This document shows, one piece after another, positions 2,481 through 16,385 of a DNA stretch of 64,000 nucleotides. Under the pieces are notes generated by a model, which worked only from the letters and a program-made list of their open reading frames with translations, was not told the origin of the DNA and searched no databases. Source of the DNA: Escherichia phage teqdroes; the sequence record NC_054932.1; one strand, 5' to 3'. Both the position numbers and the translations under genes were made by a program. Positions within the stretch are counted from its first letter, which is position 1, and the number at the start of each line of letters is the position of its first letter.

Positions 2481-3449
2481 ATGAAAACTGTAACTATCAA
2501 TAAGGGTATCTACTTCGGTAAAGAAATCTCTGGAACTTTTGAGCTCTTAGGCGAATGGTTCCCAGATAATGCTCCGGTAGATGCACAAGGAGATGGTAAA
2601 GTTTTTGTTGAAATTGACGGTAAACGTCGCGGTGTTTGGGTTTACAAATCAGACATTTCATATGATGGTGTAAAAGTTGAAGAAGTTAAAGAATCGTATG
2701 AAGATATGAAAACCCGCATTAATAAAAGATTTAATGTTATGGGAATGATGACGAATGGTATTATTAATGGAAACATTCGTTCATTAATTATCTCGGGAGC
2801 AGCAGGTATTGGTAAAACGTATTCTTTAGATAAAGCTTTAAATAAAGCAAATGATATTGGATACATTGAGTATAAAAGCATTAATGGTAAAATCTCTGGT
2901 ATCGGTCTTTATGAACAGCTTTGGAATAATCGTGAAGAGAATTCTGTCCTTTTGATTGATGATGTGGATGTTTTCTCTGATATGGACATTCTTAATCTTC
3001 TGAAAGCTGCTCTGGACACTGGAGAAACCCGTAAAGTCTGCTGGAGCACTGCATCTTCTTACTTAGAAGAAAAAGGCATTGAGCGCGAGTTTGAATTTAA
3101 AGGAACGATTGTTTTTATCACAAACGTTGACATTGACCGCGAATTAGACCGTGGTACTAAACTTGCTCCACATTTACAAGCATTAGTGTCCCGCTCAGTT
3201 TATTTGGATTTGGGTGTTCACACTAATGAAGAAATTATGGTCAGGGTTGAAGATGTTATTCTTTCAACTGACATGATGCAAAAGCGCGGTCTTTCTGATG
3301 AAGAAACTTATAAAGCATTATCATGGATGAAAGTCAATGTTAATCGTTTACGCAATGTTTCACTGCGTACTGCGCTTTATCTTGCTGACTTTATTATGAC
3401 CGACAAAAACGGTTGGGAAGAAATCGCTGAGGTTACTCTTCTGAAATAA
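2481..3449 (+). CDS. P-loop NTPase (Walker A and B), 322 aa
   Basis: SGAAGIGKT Walker A and LLIDDVD Walker B; position matches T4 nrdC.10. Confidence 0.65.
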   Translation: MKTVTINKGIYFGKEISGTFELLGEWFPDNAPVDAQGDGKVFVEIDGKRRGVWVYKSDISYDGVKVEEVKESYEDMKTRINKRFNVMGMMTNGIINGNIRSLIISGAAGIGKTYSLDKALNKANDIGYIEYKSINGKISGIGLYEQLWNNREENSVLLIDDVDVFSDMDILNLLKAALDTGETRKVCWSTASSYLEEKGIEREFEFKGTIVFITNVDIDRELDRGTKLAPHLQALVSRSVYLDLGVHTNEEIMVRVEDVILSTDMMQKRGLSDEETYKALSWMKVNVNRLRNVSLRTALYLADFIMTDKNGWEEIAEVTLLK

Positions 3450-3910: not shown

Positions 3911-4438
3911 ATGAATGCTAAAGATATTTTCAACTTGGTAAACTACAATGATGGTAAATTTAAATCTGAAGCTCAAAGCAAGTTCTTTAATGATGTCTCA
4001 ATCGGTGGTGAAATCACGGTTGATGGAGGACAAATTTACAAATCCCGTTGGAATTGGATCGTTATTATCGATGAGATTGGTATTGTAGAAATTTACAAGA
4101 ATACGAATAAAAATCGTACATTACACTGGTCTCGTGATACTAACGAACAGTACAAAAAGGATAAAGCATCTAAATTATCTCGTGTAACTCAAGAAGATAT
4201 TGAGTTCATCAAGAAAGATATTTTGATGTATGATAACTTAATTGCTGAAGAGCAAGCTGTTATTGATAAATTTGACGAGATTAAAGCTTCTCGTGAAATT
4301 CCTGATTTTATGAAAGAATCAGTAAATGAACGATACACTCTCATTTCAGAGCGTATTGAAACTTACAAAAAGCAAAGAGCTGAACGCCAGAACACTCTTC
4401 GGAAGTTTGAAGAACGGTTAAAGACGGTACTCGCATAA
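3911..4438 (+). CDS. hypothetical protein, 175 aa
   Basis: ATG after GGAGG Shine-Dalgarno; the ORF-track start at 3854 lies inside the promoter. Confidence 0.55.
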   Translation: MNAKDIFNLVNYNDGKFKSEAQSKFFNDVSIGGEITVDGGQIYKSRWNWIVIIDEIGIVEIYKNTNKNRTLHWSRDTNEQYKKDKASKLSRVTQEDIEFIKKDILMYDNLIAEEQAVIDKFDEIKASREIPDFMKESVNERYTLISERIETYKKQRAERQNTLRKFEERLKTVLA

Positions 4439-4440
4439 CC

Positions 4441-4464
4441 GCTTTATACCAAGGATGGTATAAT
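4441..4464 (+). promoter_or_regulatory. promoter, MotA-box-like GCTTTA plus extended -10 TGGTATAAT
   Basis: GCTTTA 10 bp upstream of TGGTATAAT. Confidence 0.4.
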
Positions 4465-4493
4465 GGTTCTAAGCCCTTTTAATTGAGATTATT

Positions 4494-4901
4494 ATGAAAC
4501 AGTTGATAATTAAAAGATTGAATTTATTGATATGTTGTTTATGCGTAGTAGTTGCATATAGTTATTACGCAATTAATGATTATATGCATTATAAAGATTA
4601 TGATGTTACTGTAGTTAATACCTTTACAGGAACTCAAGGAAAGGGGTCTAGTTTATCGTTTATTGCTGTATATGAACTCAAAGACGGTTATAGATTTAGC
4701 GAATATATTTCACCAGAGATGTATTCATCAATAGAAAAAGGCGATAATATTACTGTAAGTTTACGTCCTTTCGACGTAAAACAGACATTGTTTGATAATA
4801 TTGTTTGGTTCTTTGGAATGGTATTAGTTCAATCTGTGTGTGGTGCTTATATAGTCTGTTCCATCTTATTCTGTATATTTAGTAAAATTGAAATTGAGTG
4901 A
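4494..4901 (+). CDS. hypothetical membrane protein, 135 aa
   Basis: ORF track; hydrophobic N- and C-terminal segments. Confidence 0.5.
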   Translation: MKQLIIKRLNLLICCLCVVVAYSYYAINDYMHYKDYDVTVVNTFTGTQGKGSSLSFIAVYELKDGYRFSEYISPEMYSSIEKGDNITVSLRPFDVKQTLFDNIVWFFGMVLVQSVCGAYIVCSILFCIFSKIEIE

Positions 4902-4908
4902 GGAAAAT

Positions 4909-5796
4909 ATGTCAGTAGTAATTAATAATGTCAATGCAGTAATTAAATCTTTAGTTAATAAAAAATTGAATGAATGGACTATACTTCGTCGTGGAGAGCC
5001 AGATAAATTTTTTCATAGATTTAACCCAACTTTGGATTTGAATGTTATTGACAGAGATGTTCATGCTGAAATTTTAGATAAATTTAAAGTTGATATTGGG
5101 TTTGGATTAGATAAACATTTACAACGAACAAACGGGTCTGGAATGGGTTTATCTAATCGCATCATGAAAGCCCTTAATAAAATTGGAGCGTTGTCTCGTA
5201 TTAACGCGAGTGAAATCCTTCGCAATTATAATAAAGGATATGACCTTTATGGTCGACTAATGCCGAAATTATCATTCGATCAAATGATTGCGGATTTGTG
5301 GGAAAATCAACGACGATTATTAGCATTAGGCGCTCGATTAGCTAAAGGTCTAGATAAACAAATGATTTTTAAGACCAATAATACAGAAGACCTTAAATGC
5401 TTTAAATTTAGTATTCGCGGCGATGATTATTACGTCAGAGCTCGCTCTACAGATTATGTTAATATGGGGCATCATCTCTGTTTAGCTTTTGAAGTTTTAA
5501 AAGAAGCCGGAACATTAGAATATGTGTCTGGTGCTAAATGCCCGATTGGTTCAAGTTGTATTTTAATTTATCGCCCGGATGAATCCAGTTTAACTAAATT
5601 GCCTACAAAACCTGTACCAGTTCGCAGTAATGAAAAACATTCTGAGCAAATTGATTATTTTAATAAGCAAATTGAAGAGCTGAATATTTCTATTCAACAG
5701 TATGACGATGAAATTTTCAGACTATCTGGATTGAGTAGTAAAGCTAAATCTGAGCGTGAAAAATTAATTAAAATTGTTGATTTACTTAAATCTTAA
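4909..5796 (+). CDS. hypothetical protein with C-terminal coiled-coil tail (family member A)
   Basis: ATG at 4909 after GAGGAAA; C-terminal roughly 45 aa are heptad-like and E/K/L-rich. Confidence 0.55.
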   Translation: MSVVINNVNAVIKSLVNKKLNEWTILRRGEPDKFFHRFNPTLDLNVIDRDVHAEILDKFKVDIGFGLDKHLQRTNGSGMGLSNRIMKALNKIGALSRINASEILRNYNKGYDLYGRLMPKLSFDQMIADLWENQRRLLALGARLAKGLDKQMIFKTNNTEDLKCFKFSIRGDDYYVRARSTDYVNMGHHLCLAFEVLKEAGTLEYVSGAKCPIGSSCILIYRPDESSLTKLPTKPVPVRSNEKHSEQIDYFNKQIEELNISIQQYDDEIFRLSGLSSKAKSEREKLIKIVDLLKS

Positions 5797-5804
5797 GGAA
5801 CACC

Positions 5805-6824
5805 ATGAAAACTCGTTCTCAAATTGAAGATATGGTTCGTAATGCCAGCTATACCCGTAATGTTATGACATTTTTGTGCCAAAATAATTTAGACCCTGAT
5901 AAAGTTAATCGTGATATTCACTTTAAGTATATGAATAGCAGTGAATGGTTACGTCATTTTAGTAAAGCGGGATATATTACACAAATGACTGCTCGTGAGC
6001 AGCTCACCGATTTCTGTAAAACTATTGATTATAAAAATCCTCTATTTGTTCAAGGCGTTGGTCAGAGTAAGGTTGATTTATCAACAGGATTTTTTAATCC
6101 AAATCATTATCGTATTGAATGGAGATTTATTGCTCTATTTCGTAAACAATTAAAGCAAATTTTGTCTACTGCTAGTCGATTAAAAGGCTCTGATATTAAC
6201 TTAAAGAATCTGAAATTTGATGGTTATACTCTTCAGATGGAAGTAAGACCGTTAAAAGAAAATAATAGAACTGCACGAATTAGCTTTAAACCTAATACAA
6301 AAAATTCTCTTTCAATTTGTGAATGCCTTAAATCACAGTTGACAGAAGCATTTAAGTATATGGATGTTGTTGCCGCTGTTCAGTCTAAGATTTTACCTCG
6401 TTTTGAGCGAAATTGGGAACATACAACAACATATGAACTTGATATGATCGTTTCATTTAAATATGATTTTTTGAGAAAAGACGAAGTCACGCAAGAGAAA
6501 AAGCAGGAAGTGCAAGATAACTTAAATTTATCTAATTGCTCATCAAACGATCCTAAATTTTGGATGTATAGCTCAGGTAATAAAGATGCATGGAAATTTA
6601 ATAAAGCGAATTTTCTTCCTATTGAAAATCCGAGTCTTAAACCTGTTGAAAAATGGCACGCGGATGCGATTGAGAAGTCTCTTAAGGCAGTAGATGATGA
6701 ACTCGTTAAAGCGACCAATGAAGTGTTAGAAGCTGAAAAGATGCTAGAAAAAGCACAAGAAAAAGTCAAAAATCTCACGAAGCAACGTTCTAAACTGAAC
6801 AACGCACTAAATGCACTAAACTAG
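5805..6824 (+). CDS. hypothetical protein with C-terminal coiled-coil tail (family member B), 339 aa
   Basis: ORF track; C-terminus EKMLEKAQEKVKNLTKQRSKLNNALNALN. Confidence 0.6.
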   Translation: MKTRSQIEDMVRNASYTRNVMTFLCQNNLDPDKVNRDIHFKYMNSSEWLRHFSKAGYITQMTAREQLTDFCKTIDYKNPLFVQGVGQSKVDLSTGFFNPNHYRIEWRFIALFRKQLKQILSTASRLKGSDINLKNLKFDGYTLQMEVRPLKENNRTARISFKPNTKNSLSICECLKSQLTEAFKYMDVVAAVQSKILPRFERNWEHTTTYELDMIVSFKYDFLRKDEVTQEKKQEVQDNLNLSNCSSNDPKFWMYSSGNKDAWKFNKANFLPIENPSLKPVEKWHADAIEKSLKAVDDELVKATNEVLEAEKMLEKAQEKVKNLTKQRSKLNNALNALN

Positions 6825-6853
6825 TTTACTTCGCCACAAGGATGTGGTATAAT
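6824..6853 (+). promoter_or_regulatory. T4-type early promoter
   Basis: GTTTAC, 18-bp spacer, TGG-TATAAT. Confidence 0.55.
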
Positions 6854-6881
6854 GTTCTTACTTTCTACTGAGGAGATTAAT

Positions 6882-7883
6882 ATGACTCGCAACGAATATA
6901 TTAAATCGTTCAACAGCGTTATTGATGATAAAGCTATACCGATGTTTGGTCAAAATATCGTTCTTTCTATTATCAATCAATGGCTCAATAGTGTTGATGC
7001 AAGTATTGTTTCTTCCGGCAAATTTATTCATGAAGTTCGTGAAATTTCTAGCCGTGTAGATAAAGATGTTATCAAAAAAACTTTTAAAGAGTCTCGTCTT
7101 CTTTCATATTTGGTTAATCGGGATATTCTTGGTAATTTTGGGAAAGAAATTAAACGAACCAAAGATGTAGTAGGATATAATTGGTTCGGTGATGTTAATT
7201 CTTATCATCTTAATAATAAAGAAGACCCTGAGAATATTTTTACTCGTCGTTGGATTAGTAATTTCAGACTTTTCAAAGGACAAATTTTAAAATCAGCTTC
7301 TAAATTATGTTATGGCGATTATCGTCAAATTCATCCTTTGGCTTCTGATATGATTATCGTAAAAGAATATGAGCTTGATGAAAATAAAGTAGCTATTTTT
7401 GTGAATTATGGATTTTTTACACCAAACGCTAACCAAAAGAATATTAATAAATTTTTCTCAATTGCTAGCACTATAACTCGTCAGTTAGAGACTGCATTAC
7501 TTTGTATGGAAACAGTAGAAAATATTCATACATATCCTTTTAAGAATATATGCGGATGGGAAGGATATAAAATTGTAATTAGTCTTCGTGAAGTGAAATG
7601 TGCTTATTCACTTACTGATAAAGAAATTTATCAACAAAAATGTGAGGAAATTGTGAATACTTCTAAAGAAGAAACTACCCTTGAGGAACTAATGGATAAT
7701 CTTGATGATTCGCCTGAACCGGCAGAAATTCGTCCAGAAGTTATTGCATTAGAAAAAGCTTATAAAGAAGTTCTAGAAATTTCTAATAAAGCGCAGAAAG
7801 AATATGAGAAGGCTAAAAGGATTTGGGAAGAATCTGTTAATCGCCTTGATCGTTTGGAACAAGCTTTACAGTTAATTAAGTAA
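6882..7883 (+). CDS. hypothetical protein with C-terminal coiled-coil tail (family member C)
   Basis: ATG at 6882 after GAGGAG; C-terminus EKAKRIWEESVNRLDRLEQALQLIK. Confidence 0.55.
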   Translation: MTRNEYIKSFNSVIDDKAIPMFGQNIVLSIINQWLNSVDASIVSSGKFIHEVREISSRVDKDVIKKTFKESRLLSYLVNRDILGNFGKEIKRTKDVVGYNWFGDVNSYHLNNKEDPENIFTRRWISNFRLFKGQILKSASKLCYGDYRQIHPLASDMIIVKEYELDENKVAIFVNYGFFTPNANQKNINKFFSIASTITRQLETALLCMETVENIHTYPFKNICGWEGYKIVISLREVKCAYSLTDKEIYQQKCEEIVNTSKEETTLEELMDNLDDSPEPAEIRPEVIALEKAYKEVLEISNKAQKEYEKAKRIWEESVNRLDRLEQALQLIK

Positions 7884-7935
7884 TTTAAAGCCAAGGATGG
7901 CTCGGAGTATAAATCATTAACCAAGTGAGAAGAAC

Positions 7936-8865
7936 ATGAAAACTCGTAAACATTATATTGATTATTTTGACAGTCTTATTACTAAACACCGTAATTATCA
8001 GATCGGACACAGAGCAGTAATCAATAATATTCTTCGTGATTTCCTTCAATATGTTGGCCAGGAAAATCATATCTGTAAAGATACTCAAAACGCTTATTCT
8101 CATTCGTTGGGCAATTTGCTTCAATGGTTTAAACGTTCTCGTATGTTATCTTCTACTGTAGCTCGCGATAACATTAAAAACTTTATGAAGCCGAGCTTTA
8201 TTAAATCTGAGACATCTATAACTGATTTGGTTGAATTTACTATTGTTAATGATGTTAAAAAGACCCATTTGGCTGATTGGTTATCTACCATTCCTGAAAC
8301 TAAATTTGCTGATAAGTTCGCTTGTCAATTCAATGACCAAGTGAATATGCTTTTTAAGCATGCTCGTAAACTATTTACCGCGGGCGATGACCGTACAAAT
8401 ACAGTTCATGTTAAGGATTGGGTTATTGCTGATGAAGTAACACACAAGCCAGGTGGTTCATCAGTATTAATTAATATCCAGGTTCCTTATTATTACTCAC
8501 GTAATCTCGGCACCATGACAGCTAAAGAAATTAATAAGCACAACAAAACTATTCGTTCGTTGTCTTATAAACTCCGCATGATGTTAAAAATCATGGACGT
8601 AGTAGAAATGTATGACGAAACCGAAGATAATGGTTCAATGTTATACAGTTCACGCATTTTAATTAAACTGAAGAACCCTAATACATATAAGACAGTTGTA
8701 AAAGAGCCTAAAGTAGAAAAGATTGATAACTTGAGCGAAGAACGTGAATACCTCAAATCTCGACTAGTTGAAGTTGAAGCTCAGATTGCCGAACACACTA
8801 AATTGTTAAAAGCTCTTAATGCAAAAGCAAATGGTTTACGTAATGCTATTGAGGTATTGAAATGA
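7936..8865 (+). CDS. hypothetical protein with C-terminal coiled-coil tail (family member D), 309 aa
   Basis: ORF track; C-terminus [33 protein letters not shown]. Confidence 0.6.
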   Translation: MKTRKHYIDYFDSLITKHRNYQIGHRAVINNILRDFLQYVGQENHICKDTQNAYSHSLGNLLQWFKRSRMLSSTVARDNIKNFMKPSFIKSETSITDLVEFTIVNDVKKTHLADWLSTIPETKFADKFACQFNDQVNMLFKHARKLFTAGDDRTNTVHVKDWVIADEVTHKPGGSSVLINIQVPYYYSRNLGTMTAKEINKHNKTIRSLSYKLRMMLKIMDVVEMYDETEDNGSMLYSSRILIKLKNPNTYKTVVKEPKVEKIDNLSEEREYLKSRLVEVEAQIAEHTKLLKALNAKANGLRNAIEVLK

Positions 8866-9251
8866 AAAAGCGTCTATTAGAAGATATTGCAGCTTCAAGT
8901 AATTCCAGTCTAATTAAAATTATTATGGCTGGTGAAGAAGACGATCTGGAAATGCGCGGAAAGATTCATGGTTGTGATGATTTAGATTTTAAACCTCCAG
9001 CCTGGGATGCTATTATGGTTATGGTTGAACGTCGCGAAAGGGCTTCTAAAAACGTTCCTAATTGTCCTGAATGCGGTACTGAACAAGTTCAATTGATTAA
9101 CTGGCGTAAACCGGAACTTGAATATAAATGCCGTCATTGCAAACATAAATTTAGTAAGCATGCTCCGGAAATGGTTAAATTACCTGACTCTACTGAGTTC
9201 TTTAAAGAACTTGCGAGTGTTCAACCAATGCCTAATAATATTTTGGATTAA
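8862..9251 (+). CDS. zinc-ribbon protein, 129 aa
   Basis: CPECG ... CRHCKH four-cysteine motif. Confidence 0.55.
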
Positions 9252-13414: not shown

Positions 13415-13881
13415 ATTACGATAGATTTTATCCCTGTGATTTTGTGAATGGTCCTGGATGCAGGGTCGTTCTTTTCGTTACAGGTTGTTTGCATAAATGC
13501 GAAGGGTGTTATAATAAATCAACATGGAATGCTAGAAATGGTGTTCCATTCACTGGTGAAACACTAGAACAATTAATTGAATGTTTGAATAATGATTATA
13601 TAGAAGGATTGACTATAACCGGAGGTGACCCTCTTTATCCTGATAACAGAGACGTGATTCACTCTGTGGTTCAAACAGTAAAAAATCTTTATCCCAATAA
13701 AAGCATTTGGTTGTGGACAGGATATAAGTTTGAAGATATTAAACAACTAGAAATGCTTAAATATGTTGATGTTATTATTGATGGGAAGTATGAGAAAAAT
13801 CTTCCGACTAAAAAGCTGTGGCGAGGATCAGATAATCAGCGACTTTGGTCAAATACCGATGGGGTGTGGAAACATGATTAA
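13411..13881 (+). CDS. nrdG: anaerobic RNR activating enzyme NrdG (radical SAM)
   Basis: 156 aa; cysteine motif CLHKCEGCYN. Confidence 0.9.
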   Translation: MNYDRFYPCDFVNGPGCRVVLFVTGCLHKCEGCYNKSTWNARNGVPFTGETLEQLIECLNNDYIEGLTITGGDPLYPDNRDVIHSVVQTVKNLYPNKSIWLWTGYKFEDIKQLEMLKYVDVIIDGKYEKNLPTKKLWRGSDNQRLWSNTDGVWKHD

Positions 13882-13996
13882 ATTGAATTATATTATGGAC
13901 ACTATAAATGATATGATTTTTCATTTTGGTCCAGAATTTTATTCGCAATATAGTTTAGTGCTTATCAATGCTTGGTTAATCAATTAAGGGTAAAAT

Positions 13997-14212
13997 ATGT
14001 ATAAATTTCGTAAAGGTTTAGCTGATTTTCTTACAACTGTAACATTCTTTCTGTTTATGGCAGTTGGAGCTATTTTCCTTATTCCTTTTATTGCTATATT
14101 TTTCGTGATTAGTTTAATTTCTCCAGAAAAGGGCTTATCTTCTAGTGAGTTCAATGAGCGTCTGGATAAAATTACTAACAAGCTGAATGCGGTTCTTGAT
14201 AAAAAGGATTAA
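13997..14212 (+). CDS. small membrane protein, 71 aa
   Basis: ORF track; central hydrophobic helix. Confidence 0.5.
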   Translation: MYKFRKGLADFLTTVTFFLFMAVGAIFLIPFIAIFFVISLISPEKGLSSSEFNERLDKITNKLNAVLDKKD

Positions 14213-14214
14213 TT

Positions 14215-14526
14215 ATGATTAGTTTTGAGCGGTATGTAGTAGAGAGTTGGAATGGTTTTGATATGTTCGGTAATGACTATTATTTCTATGAATGTAGTCT
14301 GAACCCAAGCTTCTGGGCTGGACGTGAACAAGACCTCGAAGAAATCAACGCTCGTGCCGATTTGTTAGGTGAACTGCCTACGGTTTATTTTACCTTTGAT
14401 GAATCCGGCTTCGTTATCCAGGTTTATTTTCCTGAAGAAAACTCTGGTGAGGATTCTGTTAATCCTCCTTATTGGACTTACCAAGGAATTATTTCTCGTG
14501 GAACAAAACTCGAACTTAAAGAATAA
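14215..14526 (+). CDS. hypothetical protein, 103 aa
   Basis: ORF track. Confidence 0.55.
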   Translation: MISFERYVVESWNGFDMFGNDYYFYECSLNPSFWAGREQDLEEINARADLLGELPTVYFTFDESGFVIQVYFPEENSGEDSVNPPYWTYQGIISRGTKLELKE

Positions 14527-14821
14527 GATTGAAGTCTATGGAATTCCAGATGAAGTAGGTCGTTGTCCTGGATGTCAATCAGTTACAAAACTTCTAAAGG
14601 AGCTCAATGTTCCTTTTACTTTTTATAAAGTTCTTACTAATAATGGTAAGATTGAGTATGATCGTCAACTGATTGTATCTCTTGCTAAACGCGCTGGATT
14701 CACATCTCTTAACATTCGTTATCCAGTCATTTTCATTAATGATTCCAGACAAAATAACATTAAACACTTCAAAGAAACTCTCATTTCACTTGGATATGAT
14801 AGAGATATCATAGAAGACTAA
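14498..14821 (+). CDS. nrdH: glutaredoxin-like protein, NrdH-type, with GTG start
   Basis: CPGC motif; no in-frame ATG anywhere in the domain; GTG at 14498 preceded by AAGGA at 10 nt spacing. Confidence 0.6.
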   Translation: MEQNSNLKNKIEVYGIPDEVGRCPGCQSVTKLLKELNVPFTFYKVLTNNGKIEYDRQLIVSLAKRAGFTSLNIRYPVIFINDSRQNNIKHFKETLISLGYDRDIIED

Positions 14822-15455: not shown

Positions 15456-15587
15456 ATGAATATCAAACGAATGCTTTTTAAGCAGGGGTTATACACTTTA
15501 AATGTTACTCCAAAAGGTGATACAACTAAGTGGTCAGTAAATGACTGGATTAAATTTATTGATGAAAACGGTAACTGGAAAATTTAA
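15456..15587 (+). CDS. small hypothetical protein, 43 aa
   Basis: ATG after GAGG; ORF-track longer form overlaps the previous gene. Confidence 0.35.
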   Translation: MNIKRMLFKQGLYTLNVTPKGDTTKWSVNDWIKFIDENGNWKI

Positions 15588-15788
15588 ATGAATCCTGAAT
15601 CTAAATTATCACAACGAATTGCCGAATCTCGTCGTCAGTTCTTTGAAAATATGATAGCCCAAGGTATTGATGATGAAGTTTTTCTAAACTGGTTTTGGAA
15701 TCACAAATATTCAAGTTGCTCAGGAGCAATATTAATATCAGCCGCAATGATGTATGAAGGCTGGAAGGGTGCCAAAAAGTTTAGCTAA
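15588..15788 (+). CDS. hypothetical protein, 66 aa
   Basis: ORF track; followed by a terminator. Confidence 0.5.
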   Translation: MNPESKLSQRIAESRRQFFENMIAQGIDDEVFLNWFWNHKYSSCSGAILISAAMMYEGWKGAKKFS

Positions 15789-15805
15789 GGGCTTCGGCCC
15801 TTTTT
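15787..15805 (+). terminator. UUCG-tetraloop terminator
   Basis: AAGGGC-TTCG-GCCCTT plus T-run. Confidence 0.6.
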
Positions 15806-15840
15806 GGATAATAAAATTTTAACGTAATTGAGGATAATGT

Positions 15841-16167
15841 ATGACTATTCAAATTAAAAACGTCATTAATTCTTACGCATATGATAAAGTAGTTTCTTTG
15901 CTAGAAAAAGGCGATATTGTAACTCCTCAAATTTTGGATAAATGGGAAAAAGAGCTTCATCAGACGATGAAACAGAATGATCAGAAGATTGGACGCAATA
16001 CTGTCCGTGAATTGTTGGTTCAATATATCTTGTCAGAATTTGATGTTAAAGCTTTTGGTGTAGAATCTAAAGCTTATCAAAAGCATGAAATTTCCGATAA
16101 AACTATTCGTCGCATGAAAAATCAACGCAAGAAAAAATTTGCAGACCTGAAAATTACTAAGGTATAA
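15841..16167 (+). CDS. hypothetical protein, 108 aa
   Basis: ORF track. Confidence 0.5.
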   Translation: MTIQIKNVINSYAYDKVVSLLEKGDIVTPQILDKWEKELHQTMKQNDQKIGRNTVRELLVQYILSEFDVKAFGVESKAYQKHEISDKTIRRMKNQRKKKFADLKITKV

Positions 16168-16169
16168 TT

Positions 16170-16385
16170 ATGAACGAAGCTCTTATTAACGATTTGCGTC
16201 TTGCCGGATATGAAGTAAATACAAACGGCAATGGTTTAACTCAAATTGAAGGAAATGGATTCATCCTTGAGTATGAATTTAGCCAATGGTGGTTATATGC
16301 CAATTATGGCGAATTGATTGAATATGTTGACCAATTTGATTCACTAGATGCAGCTCTTGAAGCGGCTAAGTTGATGAATGTATGA
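16170..16385 (+). CDS. hypothetical protein, 71 aa
   Basis: ORF track. Confidence 0.5.
   Translation: MNEALINDLRLAGYEVNTNGNGLTQIEGNGFILEYEFSQWWLYANYGELIEYVDQFDSLDAALEAAKLMNV

Follow-up and report, generated by a model that had tools for sequence, protein, structure and literature searches.

What are four neighbouring genes of nearly equal length, whose products all end in a charged, apparently helical segment, doing side by side in the genome of a T4-like phage, and do they share an ancestor? The genes occupy positions 4,909 to 8,865 of a 64,000-nucleotide stretch of Escherichia phage teqdroes (NC_054932.1), which was analysed as a whole and is referred to below as the window. An original prediction made from the DNA letters had described four tandem genes on one strand encoding proteins of 295–339 residues, and the listing of open reading frames (ORFs) agrees with this exactly, giving four consecutive ORFs on the + strand. 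The T-even origin that it had assumed also holds: several Tequatrovirus genomes match a 4.9-kb stretch at 98.5% identity, 740 phage records are matched in all, and by this similarity the window belongs to a T4-like phage of the genus Tequatrovirus. In the T4 genome annotation the four genes are nrdC.6, nrdC.5, nrdC.4 and nrdC.3, which lie in the nrdC–mobD region, with the nrdC thioredoxin gene downstream of them. Our conclusion is that the four proteins are probably ancient and very divergent paralogues restricted to the Straboviridae, and that they probably serve, as non-essential early products, to inhibit anti-phage immune proteins of the host in a stoichiometric manner. The paralogy of all four is supported by profile comparisons and predicted models, with nrdC.6 as the least certain member. 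The genes were already known as T4 ORFs, one of them with a published phenotype, and the apparent novelty lies in the linking of the families into one superfamily, the map of their domains and a conserved C-terminal motif.

Pairwise comparison reveals little of this kinship. Among the four proteins BLASTP (composition-based statistics off, four-sequence database) linked only nrdC.4 (6882–7883, + strand, 333 residues) and nrdC.3 (7936–8865, + strand, 309 residues), with 26% identity over 284 residues and an E value of 4e-9, and neither BLASTP nor phmmer gave any other link within the set, as the low primary-sequence similarity noted in the original prediction would lead one to expect. Comparison of small alignments with hhalign left nrdC.6 unlinked to the others (P 0.06–0.09), and an exhaustive HMMER search of 1.84 billion representative proteins with a profile of nrdC.4 and nrdC.3 found no bridge to the nrdC.5 or nrdC.6 families. 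These blanks speak for the view, weighed below, that the proteins are unrelated; against that view, richer profiles joined them. The alignments of nrdC.4 and nrdC.3 matched with a probability of 97.8% in hhalign (percentages below for profile matches are such probabilities), and the family of nrdC.5 (5805–6824, + strand, 339 residues) matched the merged nrdC.4 and nrdC.3 profile at 95.3% (P 2e-8) over 151 collinear core columns that do not include the tail. The Jiaodavirus gene directly upstream of nrdC.2 scored 94.4% against nrdC.5 and 69–86% against nrdC.4 and nrdC.3. For the family of nrdC.6 (4909–5796, + strand, 295 residues), the comparison was made with a pooled profile comprising nrdC.5, nrdC.4, nrdC.3 and the Jiaodavirus, Tegunavirus and Acinetobacter-phage members, and gave 94.6% (P 7e-8, 209 columns), or 82% (P 1e-5, 128 columns) when the tails were removed from both sides; the corresponding controls with reversed sequences gave P values of 0.3–0.6 (0.31 for the core only). 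The nrdC.6 link emerged only once the positional orthologues from Jiaodavirus, Tegunavirus and the Acinetobacter phage had been added. All of the alignments are collinear, and three core motifs are common to the families: h-S/T-x-x-h-A-x-x-x-L-x-N/D-F/Y-x-K, Q-x-x-x-h-L-x-x-A-[SAR]-[RK]-L-x-x-G-x-D and L-x-x-x-h-x-x-M-[DE]-x-V-E. The middle motif takes the form NRLIAQGARLCSGND in the Tegunavirus protein.

Predicted structures of two of the members point in the same direction. AlphaFold2 models were built for nrdC.6 (m8f3ee927bf3b) and nrdC.5 (m47ed4682b486) from separate family alignments, with predicted local distance difference test scores (pLDDT) of 74 and 69, respectively. In nrdC.6 the core is predicted to be an alpha/beta domain spanning residues 81–222 (5149–5574, + strand), which carries the shared motifs ALNKIGALSRINASEILRNYNKG and NQRRLLALGARLAKGLD and is composed of helices at 81–91, 94–105, 123–132 and 134–146, strands at 167–170 and 173–176, a helix at 186–199 and strands at 204–209 and 217–221. 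The predicted alpha/beta core of nrdC.5 extends over residues 45–227 (5937–6485, + strand), from a helix at 45–52 to a helix at 220–227, and the mean pLDDT of its ten-residue blocks is 64–93 over residues 61–220 and 46–57 over residues 45–60. It is followed by a linker at residues 228–280 (6486–6644, + strand) that is predicted to be disordered, with pLDDT below 50 for residues 228–279, and that differs in length between genera in the alignment; the low-confidence linker before the tail is 52 residues long in nrdC.5 and 15 in nrdC.6. In both models the secondary-structure elements come in an identical order and a disordered linker leads to a C-terminal helix. In the register set by hhalign, in which the nrdC.6 residue number equals that of nrdC.5 plus 18, five of the AlphaFold2 helices fall on one another, and the order of the beta-hairpins after them is also shared. 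When compared by Foldseek with viral structure predictions (BFVD), both models matched uncharacterised proteins of 290–375 residues from other T4-like phages, among them A0A2Z4QAR2 of phage Mineola (E values of 2.5e-7 and 9.3e-4) and A0A0A0PZG4 of Pectobacterium phage PM2 (1.6e-5 and 1.2e-5). In Mineola a coding sequence of 326 residues lies directly upstream of nrdC.2, the slot of nrdC.3 and nrdC.4, and is a positional orthologue; on its matching length it is taken to be A0A2Z4QAR2. A search for sequence relatives in the PDB returned none except weak coiled-coil matches, and at the level of these predictions no enzyme-like fold is seen. The structural comparison that had been proposed for the N-terminal domains agrees for two of the four proteins, in element order and in Foldseek neighbours, and together with the hhalign results the agreement supports the common ancestry that the original prediction had put forward as a hypothesis. 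The design suggested by the models would start with an N-terminal helical segment and continue into a small alpha/beta core of two layers, built in the order helix pair, beta-hairpin, helix and beta-hairpin; a disordered linker, not constant in length, would then lead to an amphipathic helix of 45–59 residues closing with a conserved motif at the C-terminus.

The C-terminal tails are the feature by which the genes were first noticed, and their heptad periodicity stands, although at 45–59 residues they are longer than the 40–50 that had been claimed. The tails lie at residues 243–295 of nrdC.6 (5635–5793, ending LIKIVDLLKS), 281–339 of nrdC.5 (6645–6821, ending LNNALNALN), 285–333 of nrdC.4 (7734–7880, ending LEQALQLIK) and 265–309 of nrdC.3 (8728–8862, ending LRNAIEVLK), all on the + strand; the segments, with lengths of 52, 59, 49 and 45 residues, are free of proline and contain at most one glycine. 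In each of them a single unbroken heptad register runs through 6–8 heptads, which exceeds the four heptads of hydrophobic periodicity in a helical segment by which a coiled coil is defined here. Hydrophobic residues fill 80–88% of the a and d positions (fractions of 0.80, 0.88, 0.86 and 0.85 in the order given) and 19–28% of the others, and the chance that a shuffled tail attains the observed periodicity is 2.5e-4, <5e-5, 1.3e-3 and 5e-3, respectively. When that periodicity is scored over the last 49 residues of each of the 85 non-overlapping ORFs of the window, these genes hold ranks 1–4, and a cruder score on the last 28 residues placed them at 1, 3, 5 and 11. The tail of nrdC.5 is a single AlphaFold2 helix (281–338, pLDDT about 80–92), and that of nrdC.6 forms two (245–271 and 277–294) with a break at Ser-Gly.

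The last residues of all four proteins follow the pattern L-x-x-[ASTIV]-[LIVM]-x-x-[LI]-[KN], placed in the same heptad phase and followed by no more than one further residue. This motif is found in four of the 146 ORFs of the window, namely these four genes, against 0.04 expected, a rarity that is not independent evidence, the pattern having been composed after the four sequences had been seen. The pattern is also found in the counterparts of these genes in VR7, JS98, JS09 and phiR1-RT, homologues from four other genera that had no part in defining it, with one unrelated match in those loci. Upstream of the last ten or so residues the four families differ in their tails, each tail being well conserved inside its own family. 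Between genera the tail is 60–70% identical in nrdC.6 (31–43% for the rest of the protein), 59–61% in nrdC.4 (41–50%) and 31–43% in nrdC.5 (21–29%). Because the tail is better conserved than the remaining protein in every inter-genus comparison, it is a constrained functional element and not a spacer. In the T4 reference record NC_000866 a one-nucleotide deletion in nrdC.6 (GAGCTG-ATATT against GAGCTGAATATT, compared with window positions 5640–5810) shifts the frame and yields a protein of 275 residues that has lost the coiled-coil tail, the coding of which is intact in the next frame. A second T4 record, OL964735.1, contains the complete nrdC.6 of 295 residues, and the truncated form goes back either to an error in sequencing or to a mutated laboratory strain.

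A further gene of this region, nrdC.8 (3911–4438, 175 residues), lies upstream and also has a helical, heptad-like end, which took rank 2 in the cruder C-terminal score, although the protein is unrelated; that such an end can arise independently is another point in favour of convergence. We rejected nrdC.8 as a fifth member, since hhalign gave P values of at least 0.05, the terminal motif is absent and the protein is highly conserved across genera. It has a BFVD match of 175 residues, and its transcript was reported in 2026 to be down-regulated in DRT1-expressing cells (PMC13275509).

Each of the four genes can be assigned to its T4 counterpart. By BLASTP, nrdC.6 is 95.8% identical to T4 nrdC.6 over residues 1–258; nrdC.5 is 92.6% identical to T4 nrdC.5 over 340 residues and is located between the nrdC.6 and nrdC.4 orthologues; nrdC.4 is 94.0% identical to its namesake, and nrdC.3 just 60.0%. 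Among the protein families, nrdC.5 belongs to phrog_2351 and to Pfam DUF7235 (PF23882), with 416 bits, an E value of 1.4e-124 and coverage of profile positions 1–307 of 307; membership was defined as a full-length match to the hidden Markov model above the gathering score of 30 bits, and nrdC.6, nrdC.4 and nrdC.3 gave no match to this model. Full-length matches place nrdC.4 (E value of 2e-167) and nrdC.3 (2e-116) in phrog_1435 and nrdC.6 (5e-152) in phrog_2257, and all relatives of nrdC.6 carry a precomputed assignment to PF26899, a family outside the Pfam set with which the window was scanned. PHROG thus already unites nrdC.4 with its paralogue nrdC.3 and keeps nrdC.5 and nrdC.6 in families of their own. 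In the databases phrog_1435, phrog_2351 and phrog_2257, with Pfam PF26897 and PF26899, are labelled as of unknown function and kept as three unrelated families; in contrast to the interpretation given here, neither PHROG nor Pfam records the superfamily link or the shared tail motif. An NCBIfam search of the four proteins returned nothing. Many GenBank records of T4-like phages call every gene from nrdC.11 to nrdC.1 'thioredoxin', including all eight under the match to the window. For the four proteins we reject this label: a thioredoxin or glutaredoxin is defined by the thioredoxin fold and a CxxC active site, and none of the four has a thioredoxin match in Pfam or NCBIfam. The name seems to have been carried over from the neighbouring nrdC gene and its prefix, and looks like a propagated error.

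The family is confined to T4-like (Straboviridae) phages. The HMMER search with the nrdC.4 and nrdC.3 profile returned 10 proteins, word-indexed searches with nrdC.5 and nrdC.6 returned only names of T4-like phages, their enterobacterial hosts, once another bacterium, and unnamed assembly contigs, and a search for related loci in viral contigs found close relatives only. Within this range the number of copies varies: four in Tequatrovirus, three in Gaprivervirus and Dhakavirus (nrdC.6–nrdC.5–nrdC.4) and three in Mosigvirus (nrdC.6 with nrdC.5-like and nrdC.3-like genes), whereas Jiaodavirus, Tegunavirus and an Acinetobacter phage, represented by a single locus each, have at least one recognisable relative apiece. 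In Jiaodavirus (locus 13784–14602) and Tegunavirus (locus 15559–16350) a conserved gene of about 265 residues stands just upstream of the nrdC.4-like gene; it has neither a coiled-coil end nor any similarity to the family, and the slot therefore holds different genes in different genera. Individual genomes have undergone further rearrangement. Phage Pinarejo retains only the last 47 codons of nrdC.6. In Salmonella phage Manna (locus 4215–5252) a DEI/EEI microhomology marks the point where the nrdC.6 core is joined to the linker and tail of nrdC.4, a fusion that deletes nrdC.5 and most of nrdC.4. One metagenomic protein (P0056) is an nrdC.5/nrdC.3 fusion, and the nrdC.6 of Shigella phage Sf25 (P0077, 378 residues) contains an internal tandem duplication of 83 residues. 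The rearrangements in Manna, P0056 and Sf25 are either functional or assembly artefacts.

That the family is diversifying, as had been suggested, is borne out in its rapid divergence between genera, its varying copy number and its split nrdC.3 alleles, but not in its mode of selection nor in its tails, which are the most conserved part and not the most variable. Between genera nrdC.6 retains 34–50% identity, nrdC.5 20–29% and nrdC.4 42–52%, as opposed to 78–82% for the neighbouring nrdC.11, so that the family diverges much faster than this neighbour. Within Tequatrovirus the ratio of nonsynonymous to synonymous substitution rates (dN/dS) is 0.13–0.20 for nrdC.5, about 0.20 for nrdC.4, 0.27–0.30 for nrdC.3 and 0.07–0.10 for nrdC.6, whereas most neighbours lie at 0–0.1, and nrdC.7 and nrdC.2 at 0.3–0.4 in single comparisons. 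Since the values of nrdC.5, nrdC.4 and nrdC.3 exceed those of most neighbours, constraint on these genes is relaxed; gene-wide positive selection is unsupported, dN/dS being at most 0.30. For nrdC.3 three deeply split allele classes exist in Tequatrovirus, and the class found in the window is 75–80% identical to the Mosigvirus gene and about 60% identical to the class of T4, T2 and T6. Its synonymous divergence (dS) from the T4 class is about 1.1, compared with 0.1–0.2 for flanking genes, which indicates allele replacement by recombination between genera. The adjacent nrdC.2 (8862–9251) also has a raised dS of 0.4–0.6, and is 129 residues long in the window compared with 104 in T4.

A function has been reported for one member. 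A T4 mutant with a deletion that includes nrdC.5 did not plate on E. coli ECOR17 (PMC9391042); deletion of the host gene dsr1 restored plating, plasmid-borne dsr1 protected MG1655 (PMC9391042), and T4 nrdC.5 expressed from a plasmid restored infection of dsr1-carrying cells (Srikant, Guegler and Laub 2022, PMC9391042). Dsr1 is a SIR2-domain protein with a TPR-repeat sensor reported to recognise the phage major capsid protein (PMC12803255). T4 remains viable after the loss of a large fragment spanning nrdC.1–6 (PMC9825161). These results fit the host-interaction role envisaged in the original prediction. The nrdC.5 of the window is the orthologue of this anti-Dsr1 factor (92.6% identity, same position, full-length DUF7235), and the other three genes are, on the comparisons above, its remote paralogues with the same architecture. 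The activity was shown for the T4 allele, from which that of the window differs at about 7% of residues, and the published work gives genetic rescue only, reporting no structure, no mechanism, no kinship to nrdC.6, nrdC.4 or nrdC.3 and no coiled-coil tail.

Two known systems help to frame how the family may work. The first is DSAD1 of an SPbeta-type phage, which inhibits the sirtuin defence DSR2 (PMC10973363, PMC11087589). DSAD1 neutralises a SIR2 NADase with a large C-terminal sensor by direct binding, and is the nearest mechanistic precedent for nrdC.5; no similarity to DSAD1, in sequence or in fold, was seen. The second is the dmd–tifA–adfA 'anti-TA island' of T4 (PMC9391042), likewise a cluster of small, non-essential, early and fast-evolving genes that are readily lost or amplified and each of which counters one host defence, as we propose for the nrdC.6–nrdC.3 genes. 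The members of that island are mutually unrelated, however, whereas nrdC.6–nrdC.3 appear to be paralogues with a common fold and a conserved C-terminal helix.

In the mechanism that we propose, these accessory genes would be expressed early, which is consistent with a T4-early-type promoter-like site in the cluster and with the description of T4 nrdC.5 as an early gene. The putative promoter, found by a consensus scan, lies in the gap between nrdC.5 and nrdC.4 (6825–6853, + strand; GTTTACT, a 17-nucleotide spacer and TGGTATAAT), and shares 10 of the 12 consensus positions, along with a TG that extends the −10 element. The start codon of nrdC.4 at 6882 is preceded by GAGG at a distance of eight nucleotides, whereas an in-frame upstream ATG at 6852 falls inside the promoter-like site; a Shine–Dalgarno-like GAGG also stands ahead of the ATG at 4909. 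The T4 late-promoter consensus is TATAAATA. The gap between nrdC.4 and nrdC.3 (7884–7935) holds TATAAAT, which is close to this consensus and is unexpected in a cluster that would otherwise be expected to be early. Produced before the late proteins, nrdC.5 would block Dsr1, in which a TPR sensor accompanies a SIR2 NADase, and would thus avert the depletion of NAD+ at the time when the phage trigger appears. Target specificity would lie in the core and N-terminus, the more variable parts, and the conserved tail would form a coiled-coil oligomer, either for avidity or to fit an oligomeric target. Of these steps, direct binding of nrdC.5 to Dsr1 is suggested by analogy, oligomerisation through the tail by the heptad pattern, and anti-defence roles of nrdC.6, nrdC.4 and nrdC.3 by their relation to nrdC.5; we infer all three.

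Several considerations weigh against this interpretation. No experiment or complex prediction ties nrdC.6, nrdC.4 or nrdC.3 to a defence system, and a mechanism for nrdC.5 against Dsr1 was not found in the searchable literature, direct binding being an analogy with DSAD1 and DSR2. The structural comparison spans two of the four proteins, nrdC.6 and nrdC.5, and the nrdC.6 link depends on a pooled profile (82% for the core only) and on models of moderate confidence (pLDDT 69 and 74). Within Tequatrovirus nrdC.6 evolves like its neighbours, with its dN/dS of 0.07–0.10, and its tailless form in the T4 reference may mean that the tail is dispensable for that member. A heptad pattern is no proof of a coiled coil, and models of monomers cannot show oligomerisation.

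Three alternatives were considered. The proteins may not be anti-defence factors at all, but adaptors to host machines such as RNA polymerase, a protease or the nucleoid, or minor structural or assembly proteins; the effect of nrdC.5 on Dsr1 would then be indirect, and we regard this as unlikely. It is distinctly unlikely that the four products assemble into a single hetero-oligomer by way of their related tails, as in a three- or four-helix bundle, and so constitute one machine rather than independent inhibitors. The genes are indeed adjacent and co-oriented, and the tails appear homologous, similar in length and in the same heptad phase from the C-terminus, with a common terminal motif. However, their dissimilarity between families beyond the last ten or so residues fits self-association or a family-specific partner; single members are lost (nrdC.6 in Pinarejo, nrdC.5 and most of nrdC.4 in Manna, and at least one in other genera, which have no more than three); nrdC.6 is tailless in the T4 reference; and plasmid-borne nrdC.5 alone gave rescue (PMC9391042), although how far this speaks for action without the paralogues depends on the extent of the deletion in that T4 mutant ('evo 3'). 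Finally, that the proteins are unrelated, or that nrdC.4 and nrdC.3 alone are related, with size and a helical, charged C-terminus being convergent and the tandem arrangement the usual packing of early genes, is hard to reconcile with profile matches of 95% (nrdC.5 with the nrdC.4 and nrdC.3 core) and 82–95% (nrdC.6 with the pooled profile) under clean reversed controls, with collinear alignments sharing motifs and heptad phase, and with independent models that agree in element order and Foldseek neighbours, and is improbable.

Just upstream of the cluster, nrdC.10 (2481–3449, 322 residues) contains a Walker-A motif, GAAGIGKT, and shows weak Pfam similarity, below threshold, to P-loop NTPases of the AAA and STAND types (best E value of 6e-5); it is a putative NTPase.

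With the four genes read as a family of divergent inhibitors, a more specific role for the tail can be imagined. TPR domains of other proteins grip C-terminal peptides. The C-terminal helix, with its end motif L-x-x-A-[LI]-x-x-L-K-COOH, might dock into the TPR sensor common to Dsr1, Avs7 and their relatives, with the cores tuning each paralogue to one sensor. This is a long shot, suggested by the position of the motif at the extreme C-terminus, its conservation in four families and the construction of the Dsr1 sensor from TPR repeats (PMC12803255). If it were true, nrdC.6–nrdC.3 would be a family of sensor blockers matched one-to-one to bacterial pattern-recognition receptors, a sensor family that has NADase, nuclease and kinase domains among its effectors.

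In conclusion, this study describes four adjacent genes of a T4-like phage as probable members of one divergent family, of which one is the orthologue of a factor that counteracts a bacterial defence. T4 is the best-studied phage, and roughly half of its genes are without a function. The relationship proposed here would turn three 'hypothetical proteins', nrdC.6, nrdC.4 and nrdC.3, into specific candidates for further anti-immunity factors, and it provides a domain map for experiments, in which the core would be the specificity module and the tail a module for oligomerisation or docking. Differences in the number and alleles of the four genes may also explain a part of the variation in host range among therapeutic T4-like phages.

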